DNA from: a virus
Lineage: Duplodnaviria; Heunggongvirae; Uroviricota; Caudoviricetes
DNA length: 21,933 nucleotides
Virus record (IMG/VR): IMGVR_UViG_3300046534_001355
Direction: 5' to 3' (one strand)
Positions 161-18,814 of the stretch are shown here, piece after piece. Both the position numbers and the translations under genes were made by a program. Each line of letters opens with the position of its first letter. The first letter of the stretch is position 1. The notes below the pieces were generated by a model, which did no database searches, was not told the DNA's origin, and worked only from the letters and a program-made list of their open reading frames with translations.

Positions 161-1174
161 TTACTCTACTGTGGACACTGTGTGGACACTCTCGGCCTCA
201 GTACCACCTCTTAGCGGATTAAGAGAAATGGCGTCCTGAAGGTACTCTGGCGCAAAATGAGCGTAAACCATAGTTTGCTCAATCCGCGTGTGACCTAGTA
301 TCCGTTGTAGCGTGATAATACTTCCTCCATTAATCATGAAATGAGTGGCAAAGCTGTGCCTTAGTGCATGTGTGGCTTGCCCCGTTGGCAAATCCGGTTT
401 TATTGCTTTCATTGTTCGTCTGAAGCGAGGGTAATCAGCATCAGGGAATAAAAAACCTCGTTTGTTATCCGCGATCATTTTGGCAACAGCCTCTGAGATC
501 GGGACGGTGCGTGGTTTGTTTGTTTTCGTTTTAACAAACGTGACGCGGTTATGGATGATATTTTCTGCTTTCAAACGAGCTGCTTCTCCCCAACGTGCTC
601 CTGTACTCAGGCAAAGAATCGCAATCTTTTTATTGTCGCCGTCAAGTGCTGCAAGCAGTAAGGCAATTTCTTCCTGTGTGAGATAGCCTGTTTCTGGTTT
701 TTCCTCCTTAAGCCTCTTTGTCCCTCTGATAGGGTGCTCACCAAAGAATAACTCCGCTTCAATCAGGGCTGTAAACATGCCGCTAATACATGTTAAATCA
801 CGATTGATACTCGAAGGTTTAATACCCTGACTTCTTCGGGTGGCGCAGTACTGGCTGATAAGGGATTTCGTGATTTGAAATGCGCATGGGTCATTCGTTA
901 TTTTTGTGAAGATTTCAATTTTTCCAAGATTAGATTTCCCATGCTCTTCGTGTTTACCCTTTAAATCCCACCAGATCTGTGTCAGTTCCGACAGACGTCG
1001 TTTGTCTGTTGGTTTTGATAGCCATTCTTTATTGTGGTGGTTGTACAACGTGTATTTTTCGAAAGCGACAGCTTCGCTTTTCTTATCAAACTTCCTACGG
1101 ATGCGTTTTCCATTACGTCCAGTAGGGCGGATGTCCACTTCATATCGACCATCATCGAGTTTTTTGATTGCCAT
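161..1174 (-). CDS. int: Tyrosine integrase, P2 Int-like (337 aa)
   Basis: 337-aa ORF starting MAIKKLDDGRYEVDIRPTGRNGKR and ending with the recombinase region ...HALRHSFATHF...LGHTRIEQTMVYAHF (R-H-R-Y type catalytic motifs); position next to att core and C repressor. Confidence 0.93.
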   Translation of the reverse strand: MAIKKLDDGRYEVDIRPTGRNGKRIRRKFDKKSEAVAFEKYTLYNHHNKEWLSKPTDKRRLSELTQIWWDLKGKHEEHGKSNLGKIEIFTKITNDPCAFQITKSLISQYCATRRSQGIKPSSINRDLTCISGMFTALIEAELFFGEHPIRGTKRLKEEKPETGYLTQEEIALLLAALDGDNKKIAILCLSTGARWGEAARLKAENIIHNRVTFVKTKTNKPRTVPISEAVAKMIADNKRGFLFPDADYPRFRRTMKAIKPDLPTGQATHALRHSFATHFMINGGSIITLQRILGHTRIEQTMVYAHFAPEYLQDAISLNPLRGGTEAESVHTVSTVE

Positions 1175-3478: not shown

Positions 3479-3750
3479 GTATTCGTATTGAAATTGGCGA
3501 ACGTTATGTCGTTACCAGTGACAGCTTTCAGTTTATTCTCCACGAGAAAAAGAGAGCGGAAAGCGGTAAAAACGCCGGTCAGGAATGGCTGGCGGTGGTT
3601 GGTTATTACCCGAAATTAAGCCAGCTCGTTTCCGGCCTGATGCATCACGATATTCTTACCGGAAGCGCAAAGTCTTTTGCTGATTTAAACGCGCAGGTTG
3701 AGCAACTCAGCAAGCGTTGTTCAGAGGCTTTTGGCTCATATGGCCGTTAA
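3475..3750 (+). CDS. Hypothetical early-operon protein (P2 orf83 region)
   Basis: 91-aa ORF overlapping the start of A. Confidence 0.5.
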   Translation: MSIRIEIGERYVVTSDSFQFILHEKKRAESGKNAGQEWLAVVGYYPKLSQLVSGLMHHDILTGSAKSFADLNAQVEQLSKRCSEAFGSYGR

Positions 3751-6022
3751 AGCCTCCGGGCGTTTTGTCCCTCCGTCAGCATTTGCCGCAGGCACCGGTA
3801 AGACGTTTACCGGTGCTTATGCATGGAACGCGCCACGCGAGGCCGTCGGGCGCGAAAGACCCCTTACACGTGACGAGATGCGTCAGGTGCAAGGTGTTTT
3901 ATCCACGATTAACCGCCTGCCTTACTTTTTGCGCTCGCTGTTTACTTCACACTATGACTACATCCGGCGCAATAAAAGCCCGGTGCACGGGTTTTATTTC
4001 CTCACATCCACTTTTCAGCGTCGTTTATGGCCGCGCATTGAGCGTGTGAATCAGCGCCATGAAATGAACACCGACGCGTCGTTGCTGTTTCTGGCAGAGC
4101 GTGACCACTATGCGCGCCTGCCGGGAATGAATGACAAGGAGCTGAAAAAGTTTGCCGCCCGTATCTCATCGCAGCTTTTCATGATGTATGAGGAACTCAG
4201 CGATGCCTGGGTGGATGCACATGGCGAAAAAGAATCGCTGTTTACGGATGAGGCGCAGGCTCACCTCTATGGTCATGTTGCTGGCGCTGCACGTGCTTTC
4301 AATATTTCCCCGCTTTACTGGAAAAAATACCGTAAAGGACAGATGACCACGAGGCAGGCATATTCTGCCATTGCCCGTCTGTTTAACGATGAGTGGTGGA
4401 CTCATCAGCTCAAAGGCCAGCGTATGCGCTGGCATGAGGCGTTACTGATTGCTGTCGGGGAGGTCAATAAAGACCGTTCTCCTTATGCCAGTAAACATGC
4501 CATTCGTGATGTGCGTGCACGCCGCCAGGCAAATCTGGAATTTCTTAAATCGTGTGATCTCGAAAACAGGGAAACCGGCGAGCGCATCGACCTTATCAGT
4601 AAGGTGATGGGCAGTATTTCTAATCCTGAAATTCGCCGGATGGAGCTGATGAACACCATTGCCGGTATTGAGCGTTACGCCGCAGCAGAGGGTGATGTGG
4701 GGATGTTTATCACGCTGACCGCGCCGTCAAAGTATCACCCGACACGTCAGGTTGGAAAAGGCGAAAGTAAAACCGTCCAGCTAAATCACGGCTGGAACGA
4801 TGAGGCATTTAATCCAAAGGATGCGCAGCGTTATCTCTGCCGTATCTGGAGCCTGATGCGCACGGCATTCAAGGATAATGATTTACAGGTCTACGGTTTG
4901 CGTGTCGTCGAGCCACATCACGACGGAACGCCGCACTGGCATATGATGCTTTTTTGTAATCCGCGCCAGCGTAACCAGATTATCGAAATCATGCGTCGCT
5001 ATGCGCTCAAAGAGGATGGCGACGAAAGAGGAGCCGCGCGAAACCGTTTTCAGGCAAAACACCTTAATCGGGGCGGTGCTGCGGGGTATATCGCGAAATA
5101 CATCTCAAAAAACATCGACGGCTATGCACTGGATGGTCAGCTCGATAACGATACCGGCAGACCTCTGAAAGATACTGCCGCGGCTGTTACTGCATGGGCG
5201 TCAACGTGGCGCATCCCGCAATTTAAAACGGTTGGTCTGCCGACAATGGGGGCTTACCGTGAACTACGCAAATTGCCTCGCGGCGTCAGCATTGCTGATG
5301 AGTTTGACGAACGCGTCGAGGCTGCACGCGCTGCCGCAGACAGTGGCGATTTTGCGTTGTATATCAGTGCGCAGGGTGGGGCAAATGTTCCGCGCGATTG
5401 CCAGACTGTCAGAGTCGCCCGTAGCCCGTCGGATGAAGTTAACGAGTACGAGGAAGAAGTCGAGAGAGTGGTCGGCATTTACGCGCCGCATCTCGGCGCG
5501 CGTCATATTCATATCACCAGAACGACGGACTGGCGCATTGTGCCGAAAGTTCCGGTCGTGGAGCCTTTGACTTTAAAAAGCGGCATCGCCGCGCCTCGGA
5601 GTCCTGTCAATAACTGTGGAAAGCTCACCGGTGGTGATACTTCGTTATCGGCTCCCACACCGACTGAGCATGCTGCAGCGGTGTTAAATTTTATAGATGA
5701 AGGGATTCTAAGTTGGACCGAGCCAGGCATTATGAAGGTACTTAGAGACTTATTGAGTAATGAACTGAAATGCAGTAATCGTTCACAGCAGAGCTTTACT
5801 CCTTTCAATGGTCGAAGCTACTTTCCTGCCCCATCCGCCCGGTTGACAAGGCAGGAGAGAAAGACTATCCCGAAAATTAAGGTTCTTCTTGCACAAAGTG
5901 ACATTCAGGCTAGTTATTGGGAGCTTGAAGCTCTCGCTCGCGGAGCTGTTTTGGATTTTGGGCATAAGCGTTTTAAATTTGATACCGATATCGACTTTTT
6001 TGACAGACAGCGTGAGTGGTAG
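3740..6022 (+). CDS. A: Replication initiation protein A (rolling-circle nickase), divergent AT-rich 3' end
   Basis: Start taken at MAVKASGRF (ATG 3740), not the track start 3698. HUH-like motif PHWHMMLF and two-tyrosine motif GYIAKYISK seen. The last ~110 codons (from about 5690) are clearly more AT-rich than the rest. Confidence 0.88.
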   Translation: MAVKASGRFVPPSAFAAGTGKTFTGAYAWNAPREAVGRERPLTRDEMRQVQGVLSTINRLPYFLRSLFTSHYDYIRRNKSPVHGFYFLTSTFQRRLWPRIERVNQRHEMNTDASLLFLAERDHYARLPGMNDKELKKFAARISSQLFMMYEELSDAWVDAHGEKESLFTDEAQAHLYGHVAGAARAFNISPLYWKKYRKGQMTTRQAYSAIARLFNDEWWTHQLKGQRMRWHEALLIAVGEVNKDRSPYASKHAIRDVRARRQANLEFLKSCDLENRETGERIDLISKVMGSISNPEIRRMELMNTIAGIERYAAAEGDVGMFITLTAPSKYHPTRQVGKGESKTVQLNHGWNDEAFNPKDAQRYLCRIWSLMRTAFKDNDLQVYGLRVVEPHHDGTPHWHMMLFCNPRQRNQIIEIMRRYALKEDGDERGAARNRFQAKHLNRGGAAGYIAKYISKNIDGYALDGQLDNDTGRPLKDTAAAVTAWASTWRIPQFKTVGLPTMGAYRELRKLPRGVSIADEFDERVEAARAAADSGDFALYISAQGGANVPRDCQTVRVARSPSDEVNEYEEEVERVVGIYAPHLGARHIHITRTTDWRIVPKVPVVEPLTLKSGIAAPRSPVNNCGKLTGGDTSLSAPTPTEHAAAVLNFIDEGILSWTEPGIMKVLRDLLSNELKCSNRSQQSFTPFNGRSYFPAPSARLTRQERKTIPKIKVLLAQSDIQASYWELEALARGAVLDFGHKRFKFDTDIDFFDRQREW

Positions 6023-6110
6023 TTGAAAAAACGGTTGAACGGGGTAACAATATGTTATTGTTGAGGAATTGTTTGTTATGGTTTAATTTTTATACACGGC
6101 AGAAAAGCAT

Positions 6111-7334
6111 ATGAGCATGGTTGAATGGATAAGCCACGAGAAAAAAGATAGCCTGATACTATTTGTACATGGATTAAATGGTGGTTTGGAAACATGGAAC
6201 TTTAATAAAGAAATTTCATTTCCAAAACTATTAGCAGAAGATGAAGATATTAGCAACGTATTTGATATTGCATGTTTCAATTATTTTACTAAATTCACAC
6301 AAACGTATGCTAAAACGTCAGGATTCTTGGCTCGTATTTTCTTTAAGAAAAATAAGTTAGAGAGAAATTTACCAACTGATGAAATAGCTGAGTTATTGTA
6401 TACTGAGATTAGAGTAACACTAAGTGATTACTCTCGAATTATAATAATCGCCCATAGTATGGGGGGGTTAATATCAAAAAATCTAATTCTAAAAAAAGTT
6501 GAGCATGAGGAACAATCTAATATAATTGGATTCATTTCGTTAGCAGTCCCTCACTTTGGTGCTAAATTAGCGAATATAACTTCAATGGTATCTTCAAATG
6601 CTCAGTTAGTAGATCTTGGATTGTTAAGTGAAGCGACTGATACATTGAATAGGCGCTGGATAAATTGTAGCAAAAAACTTCCTATCACTAGATATGTTTA
6701 TGGATCTCATGACACTATAGTCGATAAAAAAAGCGCATTACCGATGGATAGTGAACGACATAACTCAATTGCAGTTAATGAAGGGCATAGCTCAATTTGC
6801 AAGCCCGAAAATAGCTCGTCTACAGTGTTTGTTGCGGTAAAGCAATTTATTCAGCAGATAAATTTAGAAGCACCCAAGAAGATTTGCGTTGAGCGTTTTT
6901 CTGATGATAAACAATATGATAATGAGTATTTCGTCTTAAAAATGATTGTCGCAGATATACATCAGGATATCGCTCTGCATGCAAAGGAATATTATTATAA
7001 TGCTGAGCTTGCGAGAAATATTTTTACGAGTGATTACGATAGAAAACAACTTGGTCATTTGTATTCTAAAATAAGGGAGATTTACCAGGAAGAGTATGAG
7101 CAATACATTGCAAATTCAATTTCCCCAGATAAATTTATTGCTGCTGTTCATAGACGAATAACCCAGGAGGATAAGTCGTCGTTAGATTCTCTTATAAAAA
7201 GTTTGGAAACGATACATAAGAAAGGAATGTTGCATCAACTGGCTAACAAAAATGACAGGGATATTGTCTGGTCATCTGAAACCAGCGTAGAAACTTTGGA
7301 GCAATTACGGCGAGGTAATCATGAAGAAAAATAA
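6111..7334 (+). CDS. Lipase-like alpha/beta hydrolase fused to a C-terminal helical domain; candidate defence effector (LmuA-like position)
   Basis: FVHGLNGG oxyanion-hole-like motif; nucleophile elbow AHSMGG (Ser116, nt 6456-6458), identical to the Bacillus lipase A pentapeptide; later GSHDTIVD and EGHSSI supply candidate Asp/His. AT-rich; first gene of a 3-gene overlapping operon. Confidence 0.7.
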   Translation: MSMVEWISHEKKDSLILFVHGLNGGLETWNFNKEISFPKLLAEDEDISNVFDIACFNYFTKFTQTYAKTSGFLARIFFKKNKLERNLPTDEIAELLYTEIRVTLSDYSRIIIIAHSMGGLISKNLILKKVEHEEQSNIIGFISLAVPHFGAKLANITSMVSSNAQLVDLGLLSEATDTLNRRWINCSKKLPITRYVYGSHDTIVDKKSALPMDSERHNSIAVNEGHSSICKPENSSSTVFVAVKQFIQQINLEAPKKICVERFSDDKQYDNEYFVLKMIVADIHQDIALHAKEYYYNAELARNIFTSDYDRKQLGHLYSKIREIYQEEYEQYIANSISPDKFIAAVHRRITQEDKSSLDSLIKSLETIHKKGMLHQLANKNDRDIVWSSETSVETLEQLRRGNHEEK

Positions 7335-7833
7335 CTTGCCGTATATACCTCTTGATGAAGAGTATAGTTTGAATTTTGCTATGCTTGCCATTGCTATATC
7401 TATATTATCTCATAGCAAAAAAGGAGTGTTGTCATTAGATATTAATAAAATACAAATTTTTATGTATCTGATAAAAAATCCATCAAAAATTGATTGTGCT
7501 CTTACAGTTTCGGGGAAAAAGCCTGCTTGTGTCGAGTCCCAGTTAACTTATACAATAAAGAGTTTTTCATCAAATGTAGATATCTTATTCGACAATTCCA
7601 AAGTGAAATATCTTATAAAAATTATGTCATTGCGGGGATTGCTCTCAGCTGAGAAAAAAAATAATGAGAGTGTTAAATTATTTTTATCTGAAAAAGGTAA
7701 GGAATTTGCTAGCTCATTGACTGATGGATATTTTAAAGAAATAAAACGACTAGCCGAAGCATTGTTACCGCTACAAGCATTGCCTACCTCTAAGTTAAAC
7801 TCTGTTATAAACAAAGTCTTCAAGGAGAAATGA
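7321..7833 (+). CDS. Small middle-gene protein of the operon (LmuC-like position)
   Basis: 170-aa ORF overlapping the upstream stop by 14 nt and the downstream start by 4 nt (ATGA), implying translational coupling; no recognisable motifs. Confidence 0.55.
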   Translation: MKKNNLPYIPLDEEYSLNFAMLAIAISILSHSKKGVLSLDINKIQIFMYLIKNPSKIDCALTVSGKKPACVESQLTYTIKSFSSNVDILFDNSKVKYLIKIMSLRGLLSAEKKNNESVKLFLSEKGKEFASSLTDGYFKEIKRLAEALLPLQALPTSKLNSVINKVFKEK

Positions 7834-9800
7834 TGAAATCATATCTCAATATCAATAGTTTGATTCTTGTTGGCGTTCGTAAAAACTACGTCACTACTTT
7901 TTATAAAGGTCTCAATGTTATCTACGGAGACTCTGACACAGGTAAGTCAAGTATTCTGGAGTTTATTAATTATCTTTTAGGTGCTAGTTCTATAGATTTA
8001 GCAGATGAAATAAAAACATCAGTAAACTATGCTGCTCTTGAAGTAGTGATCAATGATACTGTATTCACAATCGTAAGAGATATCTATGATCATAAAAAAT
8101 CAATAGAAGTTTATCGTTGTAAGTTTGATGATTTACATAAACACTTTCCGAAAAAATACGCTCCTAATTATAGCCCCTTATCAAATGTTGATGGCGTTTT
8201 TTCGGAGTTTTTACTTGATAGTCTTAATTTTCCAAAAATTGAAATTAAGGTGTCTCCTTCTAAAGCACATTCACAGATGCGCAGGTTAAGCTTTAGAAAT
8301 ATATATAAATTTGTTTATGTAAGTCAGGATGATATTGGTAGTAAATCATTCTTACGATTGGAGGATTGGTCCCGTTACGCATTTACGAAAGAAGTTTTTA
8401 AATACATGTTCAATGTGTTGGATGAAAGCATCGCCAGACTCCAAGGTGAAATATCTGCAAAAAGTAGTTTAGTAACGGAACTAAATAAGAAGTATCAGAT
8501 AATATCTGAATTTCTTCGCGATACAGACTATGAAACAATTGAATCAATTGATGATGAGATTAATAGGATAGATCTTATTTTAGAAGAACTTGTTGCAGGT
8601 TTGTCTGCTCTCGATAAAAATATGAAAGCGGATTCCATGCAGTATACAGAATTGAAAGATGCCCACAATTTTATTTCGCTTAAATACAAGGAGTGCATAT
8701 TAAATATTAGCACGCTTGAGGATAAGATTGATAAATATTCGCGGTTAAAAAATGACTATGATAATGATATTGAAAAACTCAAAGCGATTAAAACAGCAAA
8801 TTCTCGCATTGGTGTATTGGATAAGGAAGTATTTTCCTGTCCGATCTGTGATAGCCACATTAAAATAGATGATTCCGATTTTCCATTTGAAATTTCATCA
8901 GAAAAAGATCTTAATGAAGAGTTGAATTCACTTAGTCGACGTAGACGAAATATTAATGACATGATCTCAGAAATGTCATTTAAATTAAAAAAAGAATCTG
9001 GTTATAAAAAAGAATTAGATGAACAACTTGACGAGTTGAGAGAGTTAATTGACGAAGAAAGCCAGTCAATGATTACACCATTCTTGACTCAGAGAGATTT
9101 TTATATTAAAGAGATATCAAAAAACGAGAAGGTTAGGGAGCAGTTAGTAAAAGATTTGAAGGTTAGAAACCAGCAAGAGGAACTGCTTGAAAAGCATCAG
9201 GTACTGATAAAAGATATTGAAACATTAACTGAACGCTTGGATGCGTTAAAGAAAAACGCACCTAGTATGGAAGGCATTTTACAAGGTTTAGGTGATAGAT
9301 TTAGTCAGTATTTGAAGGGTATTAATATCAAAAACAGAACGGGGATAAAAATCTCTGAAAGATATTACACCCCTGTTATAAGAGGAAAGGAATATTTTAA
9401 AATAACGTCCGGAGGTTTGAGAACTATTTCTTCTATTGGGTATCTTTTGTCTATTCTTGATTATGCAATAGACCATAATGTTAACCATCCTTTACTTTTG
9501 ATATTTGATACGGTTGGTAAATATTTAGGGAAACAGACCAAGGAAAAATACTCAAAAGAAACTCTTGCAGTCGAGGATGACCTTGAGGGGATGTCAGACC
9601 CGATGAAGTATCAAAATATTTATGAGCAACTATTGAATACAGTTCAAAAAGCAGAAAGAAAAAATGTTCCGTGCCAGATTATATTAGTTGATAATGATTT
9701 GCCTAATTCGTTTTCTACTGGTGAACTTTCGAATATTATCGCTCATTATAGCTCGGTTGGTGAGGATGGTTTGCCTTTAGGTTTAATTGATGACCTTTAA
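7830..9800 (+). CDS. SMC/Rad50-like ABC ATPase with coiled-coil and CxxC hook (LmuB-like)
   Basis: Walker A GDSDTGKSS (res 33-40); long charged heptad-rich middle; CPIC at res 337-340, the midpoint; ABC signature-like TSGGLRT (~res 526); Walker B-like LLLIFDT (~res 555-561). Confidence 0.75.
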   Translation: MMKSYLNINSLILVGVRKNYVTTFYKGLNVIYGDSDTGKSSILEFINYLLGASSIDLADEIKTSVNYAALEVVINDTVFTIVRDIYDHKKSIEVYRCKFDDLHKHFPKKYAPNYSPLSNVDGVFSEFLLDSLNFPKIEIKVSPSKAHSQMRRLSFRNIYKFVYVSQDDIGSKSFLRLEDWSRYAFTKEVFKYMFNVLDESIARLQGEISAKSSLVTELNKKYQIISEFLRDTDYETIESIDDEINRIDLILEELVAGLSALDKNMKADSMQYTELKDAHNFISLKYKECILNISTLEDKIDKYSRLKNDYDNDIEKLKAIKTANSRIGVLDKEVFSCPICDSHIKIDDSDFPFEISSEKDLNEELNSLSRRRRNINDMISEMSFKLKKESGYKKELDEQLDELRELIDEESQSMITPFLTQRDFYIKEISKNEKVREQLVKDLKVRNQQEELLEKHQVLIKDIETLTERLDALKKNAPSMEGILQGLGDRFSQYLKGINIKNRTGIKISERYYTPVIRGKEYFKITSGGLRTISSIGYLLSILDYAIDHNVNHPLLLIFDTVGKYLGKQTKEKYSKETLAVEDDLEGMSDPMKYQNIYEQLLNTVQKAERKNVPCQIILVDNDLPNSFSTGELSNIIAHYSSVGEDGLPLGLIDDL

Positions 9801-9928
9801 TACTATACATGCATTTTTTTGAATTAGATTGCATGTGGATAATGAGTCTATTTAGTGAAGGGAAGGTTTTGTGTGACGTGACTTTCGATAAAATTCAACC
9901 GCATTAAAACCGCCCCATGAAGCGGGCG

Positions 9929-10115: not shown

Positions 10116-11090
10116 TCAGCCGTTGTCAGTGTCCAGTGAGTAGTTTTTAAAGCGGATGACCTCCTGACCGAGCCAGCCGTTTATCTCACGGATCCTGTCC
10201 TGTAACGGGATAAGCTCATTGCGGACAAAGACCTTTGCCACTTTCTCAATATCACCCAGCGACCCGACGTTCTCCGGCTTGCCGCCCATCAACTGAAAGG
10301 GGATGCGGTGCGCGTCCAGCAGGTCTGCGGCACTGGCTTTTTTGATATTAAAAAAATCGTCCTTCGTCGCCACTTCACTGAGCGGGATAATTTTAATGCC
10401 GTCGGCTTTTCCCTGTGGGGCATAGAGAAACAGGTTTTTAAAGTTGTTGCGGCCTTTCGACTTCACCATGTTTTCGCGAAGCATTTCGATATCGTTGCGA
10501 TCCTGCACGGCATCAGTGACGTACATGATGTATCCGGCATGTGCGCCGTTTTCGTAATACTTGCGGCGGAACAGCGTGGCCGACTCATTCAGCCAGGCAG
10601 AGTTAAGGGCGCTGAGATATTCCGGCAGGCCGTACAGCTCCTGATTAATATCGGGCTCCAGCAGGTGAAACACGGAACCGGGCGCGAAGGCTGTCGGTTC
10701 GTTGAAGGACGGCACCCACCAGTAAACATCCTCCTCCACGCCACGGCGGGTATATTTTGCCGGTGAGGTTTCCAGTCTGATGACCTTACCGGTGGTGCTG
10801 TAACGCTTTTCCAGAAACGCATTACCGAACACCAGAAAATCCAGCACAAAGCGGCTGAAATCCTGCTGGGAAAGTCGCCGAAAATCGCCAGTGTGCATCA
10901 GTTCGGTCTGTCGGAAGAAACCCGGAAAGACGGTAAGAAAATTGATTATCCGGCGCGTCCTCTGCTCGGCTTTACCGGTGAGGATGTGCAGATGATTGAA
11001 GAGATTATCCTGGCTCACCTTGAGCGTTAGTTTTATCCAGGCAGAGGCTGATGCGCAATTAAACATTGAGCGGCCATGCTGGTCGCTCAA
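10116..11090 (-). pseudogene. Q: Portal protein Q, apparently 5'-truncated remnant
   Basis: Minus-strand ORF with C-terminus next to cos as in P2. Only 324 codons (P2 Q about 344), begins with TTG inside a 12-bp-arm hairpin, and the upstream partner P (terminase) is absent. Confidence 0.6.
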
Positions 11091-11101: not shown

Positions 11102-11887
11102 TTATGAGTGATTTTTATTTGATGCTTTGTATTCTACAACCTTCTTATTGGCGTAAAGGAATTTTGTATATGACAGGAATATAACCAGACCTGAAATGAA
11201 ATAGATGAGGGATATTATTAATAATGCTTTTTTTTGGCTGTTATTATCTTTAATTTCCTGACTTAACCATTCCGAGTCCTCCTCGTTTAGCTGTAAGAGC
11301 TTATTGCAGGCGATCTCAGGAAGTGTGTCTTTTATAAATATGTTTCGTAGCCTCTTGCAATCGGCAAGGCTATAAGTTTTATTGAATTCAACTGTTTTAT
11401 TGTTGAAGGATAAAAGAACTTTGTCACTATAAACATAGTACATCATATTTTTATATGGTATGCCTATGGCATCTCTTACTATAGCGGATTGTTTGTTGTG
11501 TATATAACATGCGAAGAGAATATAAATAATGCTGGACAGAATTACAATTATTGTTTTAATTATGTGTGGTGGTTTTGTTATGTCACCCCAGAAGCGAGTA
11601 AGAAAAAAATACGATGTTTTTAGTTTTCCATCAATCAGCCCCTGCTGTATCATTCTCACATCTTCGATGCCTGATACATTGATTCCGTTAATTATTTTAA
11701 ATAGTTGAATGTCGCGCCATTTTTTGTCGAGCATTTTTAACTTTCTGTCTGAATACTCAAAATTGAAATGATGTGCAATAAACCTCATAAGATTACTTTT
11801 ACCAAAGGTAATAAATGTTAATGCTATTAATAAAAATAGATACAAAGAGATAAACCACCACGCATTAGTCACATTATCACTGAACAT
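11102..11887 (-). CDS. AT-rich orphan membrane protein (3 predicted TM helices), unknown function
   Basis: 261-aa ORF with hydrophobic segments at about res 10-28, 107-127 and 222-241; GGAG 7-8 nt upstream of ATG; composition unlike the flanking backbone. Confidence 0.6.
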   Translation of the reverse strand: MFSDNVTNAWWFISLYLFLLIALTFITFGKSNLMRFIAHHFNFEYSDRKLKMLDKKWRDIQLFKIINGINVSGIEDVRMIQQGLIDGKLKTSYFFLTRFWGDITKPPHIIKTIIVILSSIIYILFACYIHNKQSAIVRDAIGIPYKNMMYYVYSDKVLLSFNNKTVEFNKTYSLADCKRLRNIFIKDTLPEIACNKLLQLNEEDSEWLSQEIKDNNSQKKALLIISLIYFISGLVIFLSYTKFLYANKKVVEYKASNKNHS

Positions 11888-11970
11888 TACGCTCTCCTCG
11901 AATGTTGTATGGTCGTTCTACAAATGAATCCAGATAGCATAACTTTTATATATTGTGCAATCTCACACGC

Positions 11971-12606
11971 ATGAACACTCTCGCAAATATTCAGGAACTC
12001 GCGCGCGCACTGCGCAACATGATTCGTACCGGCCTTGTCGTCGAAACCAACCTTAAAGCCGGTCGCTGCCGTGTGCAGACCGGTGGCATGTGCACTGACT
12101 GGCTTCAGTGGCTGACCCATCGTGCCGGACGTTCGCGCACATGGTGGGCACCTTCCGTGGGGGAACAGGTGCTGATTCTGGCTGTGGGCGGTGAACTCGA
12201 CACGGCGTTCGTTCTGCCGGGGATTTATTCCGGCGATAACCCCGCGCCGTCTGCGTCGGCGGATGCCCTGCATATCCGTTTCCCTGACGGGGCGGTGATT
12301 GAGTATGAACCCGAAACCAGTGCACTCACGGTAAGCGGAATTAAAACGGCCAGCGTGACGGCTTCTGATTCTGTTACTGCCACGGTGCCGGTGGTCATGG
12401 TGAAAGCATCAACCCGCGTCACCCTGGACACACCGGAGGTGGTTTGCACCAACAGGCTGATTACCGGCACGCTGGAAGTGCAGAAGGGCGGGACGATGCG
12501 CGGCAACATTGAACACACCGGCGGTGAACTCTCATCAAACGGTAAGGTACTGCATACCCATAAACACCCCGGCGACAGCGGCGGCACAACCGGGAGCCCT
12601 CTATGA
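11971..12606 (+). CDS. V: Baseplate spike protein V (211 aa)
   Basis: Start at MNTLANIQELARALRNMIRTG (ATG 11971); length and sequence match P2 gpV as I recall it. Confidence 0.9.
   Translation: MNTLANIQELARALRNMIRTGLVVETNLKAGRCRVQTGGMCTDWLQWLTHRAGRSRTWWAPSVGEQVLILAVGGELDTAFVLPGIYSGDNPAPSASADALHIRFPDGAVIEYEPETSALTVSGIKTASVTASDSVTATVPVVMVKASTRVTLDTPEVVCTNRLITGTLEVQKGGTMRGNIEHTGGELSSNGKVLHTHKHPGDSGGTTGSPL

Positions 12607-17466: not shown

Positions 17467-18814
<1,348 letters not shown>

Follow-up and report, generated by a model that had tools for sequence, protein, structure and literature searches.

A predicted lipase-type Lamassu operon carried as cargo by a defective P2-like prophage of the Escherichia coli B lineage

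Results

The three-gene Lamassu operon

The stretch of DNA analyzed here (hereafter the window, taken at its full length of 21,933 nucleotides) is the viral sequence IMG/VR IMGVR_UViG_3300046534_001355, and the system in question is a three-gene operon, lmuA-lmuC-lmuB, that lies in an island of low GC content. The first gene, lmuA (6111..7334, plus strand; ATG at 6111, stop codon included at 7334), encodes a protein of 407 amino acids (aa) that PADLOC and Pfam identify as a lipase-type Lamassu effector, composed of an alpha/beta-hydrolase domain and of CTD8 as its C-terminal domain (CTD); it matches the PADLOC LmuA model PDLC03851 with E 1.3e-108 over aa 3-406. The second, lmuC (7321..7833, plus strand), encodes 170 aa and corresponds to middle component 4 of ABC-three-component (ABC-3C) systems (Pfam MC4, PF20290, E 4.5e-27; PADLOC LmuC, E 2.6e-52). 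The third, lmuB (7830..9800, plus strand), encodes an SMC/Rad50-like ATPase of 656 aa that matches PADLOC LmuB (PDLC03862) with E 1.2e-233 over aa 2-656. The genes are tightly packed: the start of lmuC overlaps the end of lmuA by 14 nt, and the start of lmuB overlaps the lmuC stop codon by 4 nt. The original prediction, made from the nucleotide sequence of this stretch, had placed lmuA in a Lamassu context with an SMC sensor, and the strong PADLOC matches of its two partners agree with that placement.

By profile and motif, LmuB belongs to the SMC/Rad50-like ABC ATPases, proteins whose ATPase head is split and which contain a coiled coil. Its sequence shows a Walker A (GDSDTGKS, with K39), the signature TSGG and a Walker B of deviant sequence (LLIFDT), and a single CPIC zinc-hook motif is located mid-protein at aa 337-340; matches to SMC, Rad50 and ASRP are weak. 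LmuC is small, LmuA joins an N-terminal effector to a family-specific CTD, and the three genes co-occur in one operon, as in other Lamassu/ABC-3C systems. Membership in the group of ABC-3C systems having a CTD8 effector and MC4 (PF20284 and PF20290) is direct, by profile, and no difference from that group was found. RefSeq labels the products 'ABC-three component system protein', 'middle component 4' and 'AAA family ATPase', and the first of these is also the PGAP label given to LmuA in E. coli B. By profile and motif, the operon is a short, zinc-hook-bearing Lamassu (ABC-three-component) system, with an effector that assigns it to the lipase subtype.

Pfam and PADLOC, together with model and fold searches, reveal no nuclease domain in LmuA, LmuB or LmuC, and by Pfam and PADLOC there is no other effector-like domain in LmuB or LmuC. 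NCBIfam has no model for LmuA or LmuC, and PHROGs offers for all three proteins families that match end to end and are of unknown function. None of 50,697 deposited phage genomes contained a tblastn match to LmuA. Queried with LmuB, LmuC or the CTD8 region, phmmer matched no PDB chain; divergence is too great for it to reach any solved structure, and the solved Cap4-type Lamassu complexes could not serve as templates or for comparison of interfaces.

LmuA is predicted to be a serine hydrolase with an intact catalytic triad

The effector domain of LmuA (aa 1-255; 6111..6875, plus strand) is of the DUF676/PGAP1-like alpha/beta-hydrolase kind. Over aa 10-208 it matches four Pfam families, each above its curated cut-off: DUF676 with 37.2 bits (cut-off 20.3; E 2.8e-9), PGAP1 with 30.8 bits (cut-off 24.3; E 3.1e-7), Abhydrolase_1 with 28.2 bits (cut-off 25.8; E 1.9e-6) and LCAT with 22.7 bits (cut-off 21; E 7e-5). 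To assess the conservation of individual residues, 58 homologues with 42-91% identity to the query were aligned, and an AlphaFold2 model was built on the same alignment. Ten residues are invariant in all 58 homologues (H20, G21, H115, S116, M117, G118, G119, H148, D201 and H226), as is a PHxG motif.

Most of these residues fall into the motifs expected of a serine hydrolase. The oxyanion-hole HG motif, H20-G21 (6168..6173), follows a strand at aa 14-20 and is invariant also in 22 proteins of other architectures. The nucleophile elbow, A114-H-S116-M-G-G119 (6450..6467), contains the candidate nucleophile S116 (codon 6456-6458) and is invariant from H115 to G119; in the model S116 sits between a strand (aa 109-115) and a helix (aa 117-132), in strand-Ser-helix geometry. 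The catalytic acid would be D201, in the sequence GSHD (6711..6713), after a strand at aa 192-198, and the catalytic base H226, in the sequence NEGHS (6786..6788), after a strand at aa 219-222; all of these motifs lie on the plus strand. The HG and AHSMGG motifs and the downstream Asp and His in S-D-H order, all of which had been pointed out in the original prediction, are thus present; the three catalytic residues are invariant in the alignment, and the model places them in canonical loops.

The fold prediction and structural search that had been proposed as a check likewise return an alpha/beta hydrolase: the N-terminal domain is modeled for the most part in blocks with a predicted local distance difference test (pLDDT) score of 80-97, and it displays the canonical beta-sheet core with strand-elbow-helix. 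Two insertions, at aa 60-86 and 151-171, occupy the positions of lids and are modeled with low confidence. The identification of the domain as a serine alpha/beta hydrolase of the lipase/esterase kind, and not a nuclease, is supported by profile, alignment and model, and the motifs behind it are confirmed and go far beyond a chance match.

The C-terminal part of LmuA holds the CTD8 domain (aa 265-389; 6903..7277, plus strand; Pfam PF20284, E 9.2e-36). The last 150 aa had been described as helical and charged, which is what is found: the model shows helices there, with low pLDDT, and 33% of the residues are charged, compared to 22% in the N-terminal domain.

Relationship to known hydrolases

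When the LmuA family profile is compared with all PDB sequences, the best matches are RavL ('putative lipase', 5.3e-6) and BlEst2 (1.2e-4), followed by weaker matches to lysosomal phospholipase A2 (LPLA2), glycosylphosphatidylinositol (GPI) inositol-deacylase and LCAT; each of the five acts on lipids. Together with the Pfam results these matches place the LmuA domain in the DUF676/PGAP1/LCAT group of lipid-acting enzymes, and from membership in this group we infer that LmuA hydrolyzes acyl esters of lipids. RavL (7x2p) and BlEst2 (6wpx) are the nearest solved relatives, with 12-19% identity to LmuA in structural alignments, and differ from it in their cap and lid insertions. None of these relatives (RavL, BlEst2 or the members of the DUF676/PGAP1/LCAT-LPLA2 clade) is known as a phage-defense effector.

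A closer kinship with Bacillus lipase A had also been proposed, and this is true of the elbow motif and not of the family. An hhalign comparison of the LmuA family profile with a provisional sequence of Bacillus subtilis LipA aligns 21 columns around the elbow with a probability of 63%. Homology does not extend over the ~180-aa minimal lipase domain, LipA-like structures are not among the top fold hits for LmuA, and DUF676, PGAP1 and LCAT/LPLA2 are nearer. Assignment to the LipA type (family I.4) was therefore rejected.

The operon occupies the defense hotspot of a P2-like prophage

The first 18.3 kb of the window are 99.99% identical to the chromosome of E. coli B (NZ_CP115178), and the window covers a P2-like prophage integrated adjoining yegR. 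Only two substitutions separate it from NZ_CP115178 in these 18.3 kb, one in the tail-fiber gene (15824) and one in a glycosyltransferase remnant (18289). The small number of substitutions indicates that the window derives from a very close relative within the B lineage, one with a tetranucleotide repeat of its own length and a 46-bp deletion (both described below).

Read from left to right, the prophage consists of the integrase gene (161-1174, minus strand), genes for a C-type repressor and cox, gpA, the low-GC insert that holds the three lmu genes, the truncated portal gene, genes of the baseplate and tail fiber, another low-GC insert and the gene of the tail sheath. The gpA replication endonuclease gene (3698..6022, plus strand; Pfam Phage_GPA, E 7e-124, and RefSeq annotation) forms the left border of the interval that holds the operon; the right border is a portal (gpQ) pseudogene (10116..10874, minus strand; Pfam Phage_portal), which RefSeq annotates as 'phage portal protein, incomplete'. 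By its composition profile the island of cargo that separates P2 gene A from the portal gene extends over 6023..9900, where GC content is 0.32-0.34 (about 33%) compared to about 0.52 in the flanks. Genes for terminase, capsid and lysis are missing, and the prophage is therefore defective. The interval from gpA to gpQ is the principal defense hotspot of P2-like phages (PMC13586616; PMC9122126). In the E. coli B lineage the lmuA-lmuC-lmuB operon is thus cargo of the gpA/portal hotspot of a P2-like prophage that is inserted at yegR and is defective. In E. coli O157:H7 SS17 the operon takes the same position in a P2-like prophage that is apparently complete and is inserted at the same site, yegR.

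Two further open reading frames (ORFs) of low GC content, both on the minus strand, lie between the truncated portal and the baseplate genes (11102-11887, 261 aa; 11887-12273, 128 aa). Neither gives a significant Pfam match or any PADLOC match; the 261-aa product matches phrog_2407 (unknown function) end to end and has one sub-threshold match to DUF6535. These two ORFs could be additional cargo of the prophage.

In the second low-GC insert, between the tail-fiber and tail-sheath genes (which we take to be the Z/fun position of P2), a perfect tetranucleotide tract, (CTGG)x29.8, occupies 18542-18660, within the 5' part of a gene for a family-2 glycosyltransferase. Read on the coding strand, the tract is CCAG/AGCC and encodes (ASQP)n. 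The ORF that holds it (18536-18814, minus strand) is accompanied by glycosyltransferase remnants at 17467-18162 and 18249-18539 (minus strand), and the gene is broken in the window also by the 46-bp deletion, near 18308, relative to E. coli B. The length of the tract region ranges from 483 to 800 bp across 30 E. coli genomes and varies even among named laboratory strains of the B lineage (REL606, 483; ATCC 11303, 539; B, 595; B-DolR, 635); the annotation differs by record, being either one fused glycosyltransferase coding sequence or a 'hypothetical protein' plus a glycosyltransferase. The tract has the appearance of a contingency locus subject to phase variation, something unusual for E. coli.

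Distribution and selection

The operon is present in 96 of 5,426 complete E. coli genomes. In 12 of these it is 100% identical to the operon in the window; the 12 include derivatives of E. coli B together with ATCC 11303, REL606 and a few further genomes, and 11 of them are named laboratory strains of the B lineage or likely relatives. No BL21 record is among these 12 genomes. In the other 84 genomes, many of them labeled O157:H7, identity is about 97.4%. When the B allele is compared with the O157:H7 allele, dN/dS comes to 0.13 in lmuA and 0.11 in lmuB, which is similar to the 0.07 of gpA; values of about 0.12 indicate purifying selection and thus maintenance of the lmu genes.

A run of eight A residues in lmuC (7654-7661 of the window) is reduced to seven in O157:H7 SS17, shifting the frame of lmuC, which is annotated there as 132 aa. 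Among the matches listed, other O157:H7 records match at full length. The one-nucleotide deletion in SS17 may be an inactivating mutation or a sequencing artifact.

Beyond E. coli, the gene order (DUF676 plus CTD8, MC4, ATPase of ~660 aa) recurs at 33-51% identity in Methylomonas (loci L003 to L005), in Pseudomonas (L006) and in a gammaproteobacterial metagenome-assembled genome (MAG; L007). In a scan of genome contigs, at least two of the matches listed are full-length relatives, and the rest are distant and share the hydrolase only.

The hydrolase domain recurs in other defense-like proteins

An exhaustive search of 1.84 billion representative proteins yields 1,937 relatives at E <= 0.001, 113 of them at E <= 1e-30. 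About 40 relatives are full-length and LmuA-like. In many others, 840-1,490 aa long, the shared part is limited to the N-terminal 250 aa (32-44% identity). NTPase domains of the NACHT, NB-ARC or nSTAND kind were detected in five of the six long relatives scanned, one of which also has HD (P0156, NACHT and HD; P0160, nSTAND5; P0162, NB-ARC; P0212 is another of the long relatives). The triad, the HG motif and PHxG are intact in all 22 aligned proteins of other architectures, most of which are much longer than LmuA. In NLR-like defense proteins the N-terminal position is the usual place of the death effector. These STAND/NLR-like proteins share with LmuA the hydrolase domain in this position, and differ in that the sensor is a STAND NTPase in place of LmuB and LmuC and that CTD8 is absent. 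The occurrence of this domain on NACHT, NB-ARC and nSTAND proteins points to a lipase module common to Lamassu and NLR-like systems, and the hydrolase domain of LmuA is an effector module that is portable between systems.

More distant PGAP1/DUF676-type hydrolases (24-30% identical) were seen at two other loci, one in a Chitinophagaceae MAG, beside an SNF2 helicase and a NOV_C endonuclease-like protein (L009, 5956-11372), and one in Paraburkholderia, beside a TPR-CHAT protein of 1,531 aa (L015, 5887-11844). These loci may represent other conflict systems that use the same effector.

Discussion

Comparison with characterized Lamassu systems

The original prediction implied that a lipase effector would be new to Lamassu, which is not so. 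Lipase-type Lamassu effectors are already known from the ABC-3C classification, from PADLOC and from the Lamassu structure papers of 2025, and one E. coli example is genetically validated. Millman et al. extended the range of Lamassu effectors to 'hydrolase, protease and monooxygenase' (10.1101/2022.05.11.491447). Li et al. count alpha/beta hydrolases among the effectors found in LmuA, describe lipase LmuAs with CTD8 or CTD9 that AlphaFold3 predicts to form dimers and higher cyclic oligomers, and extend to them a model of activation by release and oligomerization (10.1101/2025.03.14.643221). Haudiquet et al. (2025, PNAS) name 'Lipase' as an effector specific to short Lamassu, and show that the E. 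coli system Lamassu Ec-Lipase gives defense against lambda-vir, and that its over-expression is toxic; both LmuA H215A and LmuB K42A (Walker A) impair defense, and only H215A removes toxicity (PMC12663957). In the literature consulted no substrate is reported for any Lamassu lipase, and no paper was found that mentions REL606 together with Lamassu.

Ec-Lipase resembles the present operon in being a short Lamassu of E. coli with a zinc-hook LmuB, an LmuC and a lipase-type LmuA. The Cap4-nuclease Lamassu systems (V. cholerae DdmABC; Salmonella LmuACB) share with it the SMC-like LmuB sensor, the small LmuC and an LmuA composed of an N-terminal effector and a CTD; they differ in that the effector is a Cap4 nuclease there and a predicted serine hydrolase here, and in that lipase LmuAs are predicted to form cyclic oligomers, not tetramers (10.1101/2025.03.14.643221).

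A model for LmuA action

Taken together, these results make it probable (roughly 0.8) that the ORF at 6111-7334 is the LmuA of a lipase-subtype Lamassu that acts by release, oligomerization and acyl-ester cleavage. By analogy with the solved Cap4-type complexes, a dimer of LmuB together with LmuC would hold monomeric LmuA inactive by way of CTD8, which on the evidence of those structures is presumed to be a docking and oligomerization module. As suggested by work on Cap4-type systems, LmuB would then sense DNA ends or intermediates of phage replication, and an ATP-dependent change would free LmuA. Free LmuA would oligomerize through its CTD, as in the AlphaFold3 predictions made by others for CTD8 and CTD9 lipases, and the N-terminal domain would thereby be switched on. 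The Ser116-Asp201-His226 hydrolase would finally cleave an acyl ester, most probably, judging from its family, in phospholipids of the inner membrane, so that the infected cell would be killed or arrested, i.e. abortive infection. The membrane-directed abortive mechanism put forward in the original prediction is accordingly one that family membership suggests and that we infer from it. Its logic is analogous to that of CapV, the patatin-like phospholipase of cyclic-oligonucleotide-based anti-phage signaling systems (CBASS), where a sensor of infection is likewise coupled to a lipid-hydrolyzing suicide effector. The folds are unrelated, however: CapV has the Ser-Asp dyad of patatins, whereas LmuA has the Ser-Asp-His triad of alpha/beta hydrolases, and CapV is activated by a cyclic nucleotide, as opposed to release from an SMC complex in Lamassu.

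Several points weigh against this model. LmuA has no transmembrane or strongly hydrophobic segment (the maximum Kyte-Doolittle value is 1.42 over 19 aa), which gives no support to a membrane-anchored LmuA; the putative lids are low-confidence regions of the model; and CTD8 is modeled poorly, much of aa 258-407 having pLDDT < 50. Lipases do not stand out in the fold searches, where thioesterases, C-C hydrolases and carboxylesterases score nearly as well, and similarity of fold alone can therefore not fix the substrate of LmuA. The residues mutated in Ec-Lipase are numbered H215 and K42, compared to H226 and K39 in the present operon, and His is found at position 215 in none of the 58 aligned homologues of LmuA; Ec-Lipase must thus be a different, possibly more distant, lipase LmuA. 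No experiment on the present operon was found in the literature. Finally, with its high AT content and its place in a defective prophage, the operon may not be transcribed in its host.

The last of these points leads to an explanation, unlikely but deserving of some weight, in which the operon is inert cargo of a decayed prophage in E. coli B, either silenced or no longer functional. The decay of the prophage fits this view, with its portal truncated and its terminase, capsid and lysis genes missing, as does the very low GC content, since DNA of 33% GC would fit silencing by H-NS, and the one-nucleotide deletion in the A8 run of lmuC in O157:H7 SS17 points the same way. However, none of the three ORFs is disrupted in the window, in 12 genomes they are 100% identical, and the dN/dS of about 0.12 against the O157:H7 allele is that of genes under purifying selection. 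Silencing, moreover, would touch the expression of the system and not its identity; inert cargo in E. coli B is compatible with the release-and-oligomerization model.

A second alternative, rather improbable, retains LmuA as a catalytic Lamassu effector and changes its target from bulk membrane phospholipid to a soluble or specific ester or thioester, such as acyl-acyl carrier protein (acyl-ACP), acyl-coenzyme A, a lipoprotein or a lipid intermediate of the cell wall, or makes of it an LCAT-like transacylase; arrest would then come from a block in metabolism or envelope biogenesis and not from lysis. The near-equal scores of thioesterases and carboxylesterases in fold searches leave room for such a target. 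Against it, the profile-level relatives whose function is known (DUF676, PGAP1, LPLA2, LCAT and BlEst2) all act on membrane or neutral lipids, and the published literature treats the LmuA-type domain as a lipase. That the operon couples a sensor of DNA structure to an undescribed abortive block, by way of a specific ester or thioester (acyl-ACP, lipoprotein or envelope lipid intermediate) or of transacylation, is a proposal that we regard as doubtful.

It is very improbable that the alpha/beta-hydrolase domain is a dead scaffold or a ligand sensor with the effector elsewhere: some proteins of this fold are indeed non-enzymatic, and NDRG2 and KAI2-like receptors are among the fold hits of LmuA, but the idea of a scaffold devoid of catalysis was rejected, since triad, HG and elbow do not vary in the 58 homologues and the 22 proteins of other architectures, LmuB and LmuC offer no alternative effector-like domain, and a mutant of the catalytic His in the related Ec-Lipase loses both toxicity and defense (PMC12663957).

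Implications

For the lipase-subtype Lamassu favored here, intact copies are present in laboratory strains in wide use, namely E. coli B, ATCC 11303 and also REL606, from which the long-term evolution experiment was started, and a near-identical copy is present in an apparently intact P2-like prophage of many O157:H7 strains. The copy in E. coli B and REL606 is therefore a convenient native system for asking what the lipase cuts, and how it is activated by release from an SMC-like sensor and oligomerization. The presence of the hydrolase module on NACHT, NB-ARC and nSTAND proteins suggests that the answer as to its substrate would carry over to many NLR-like defense proteins.

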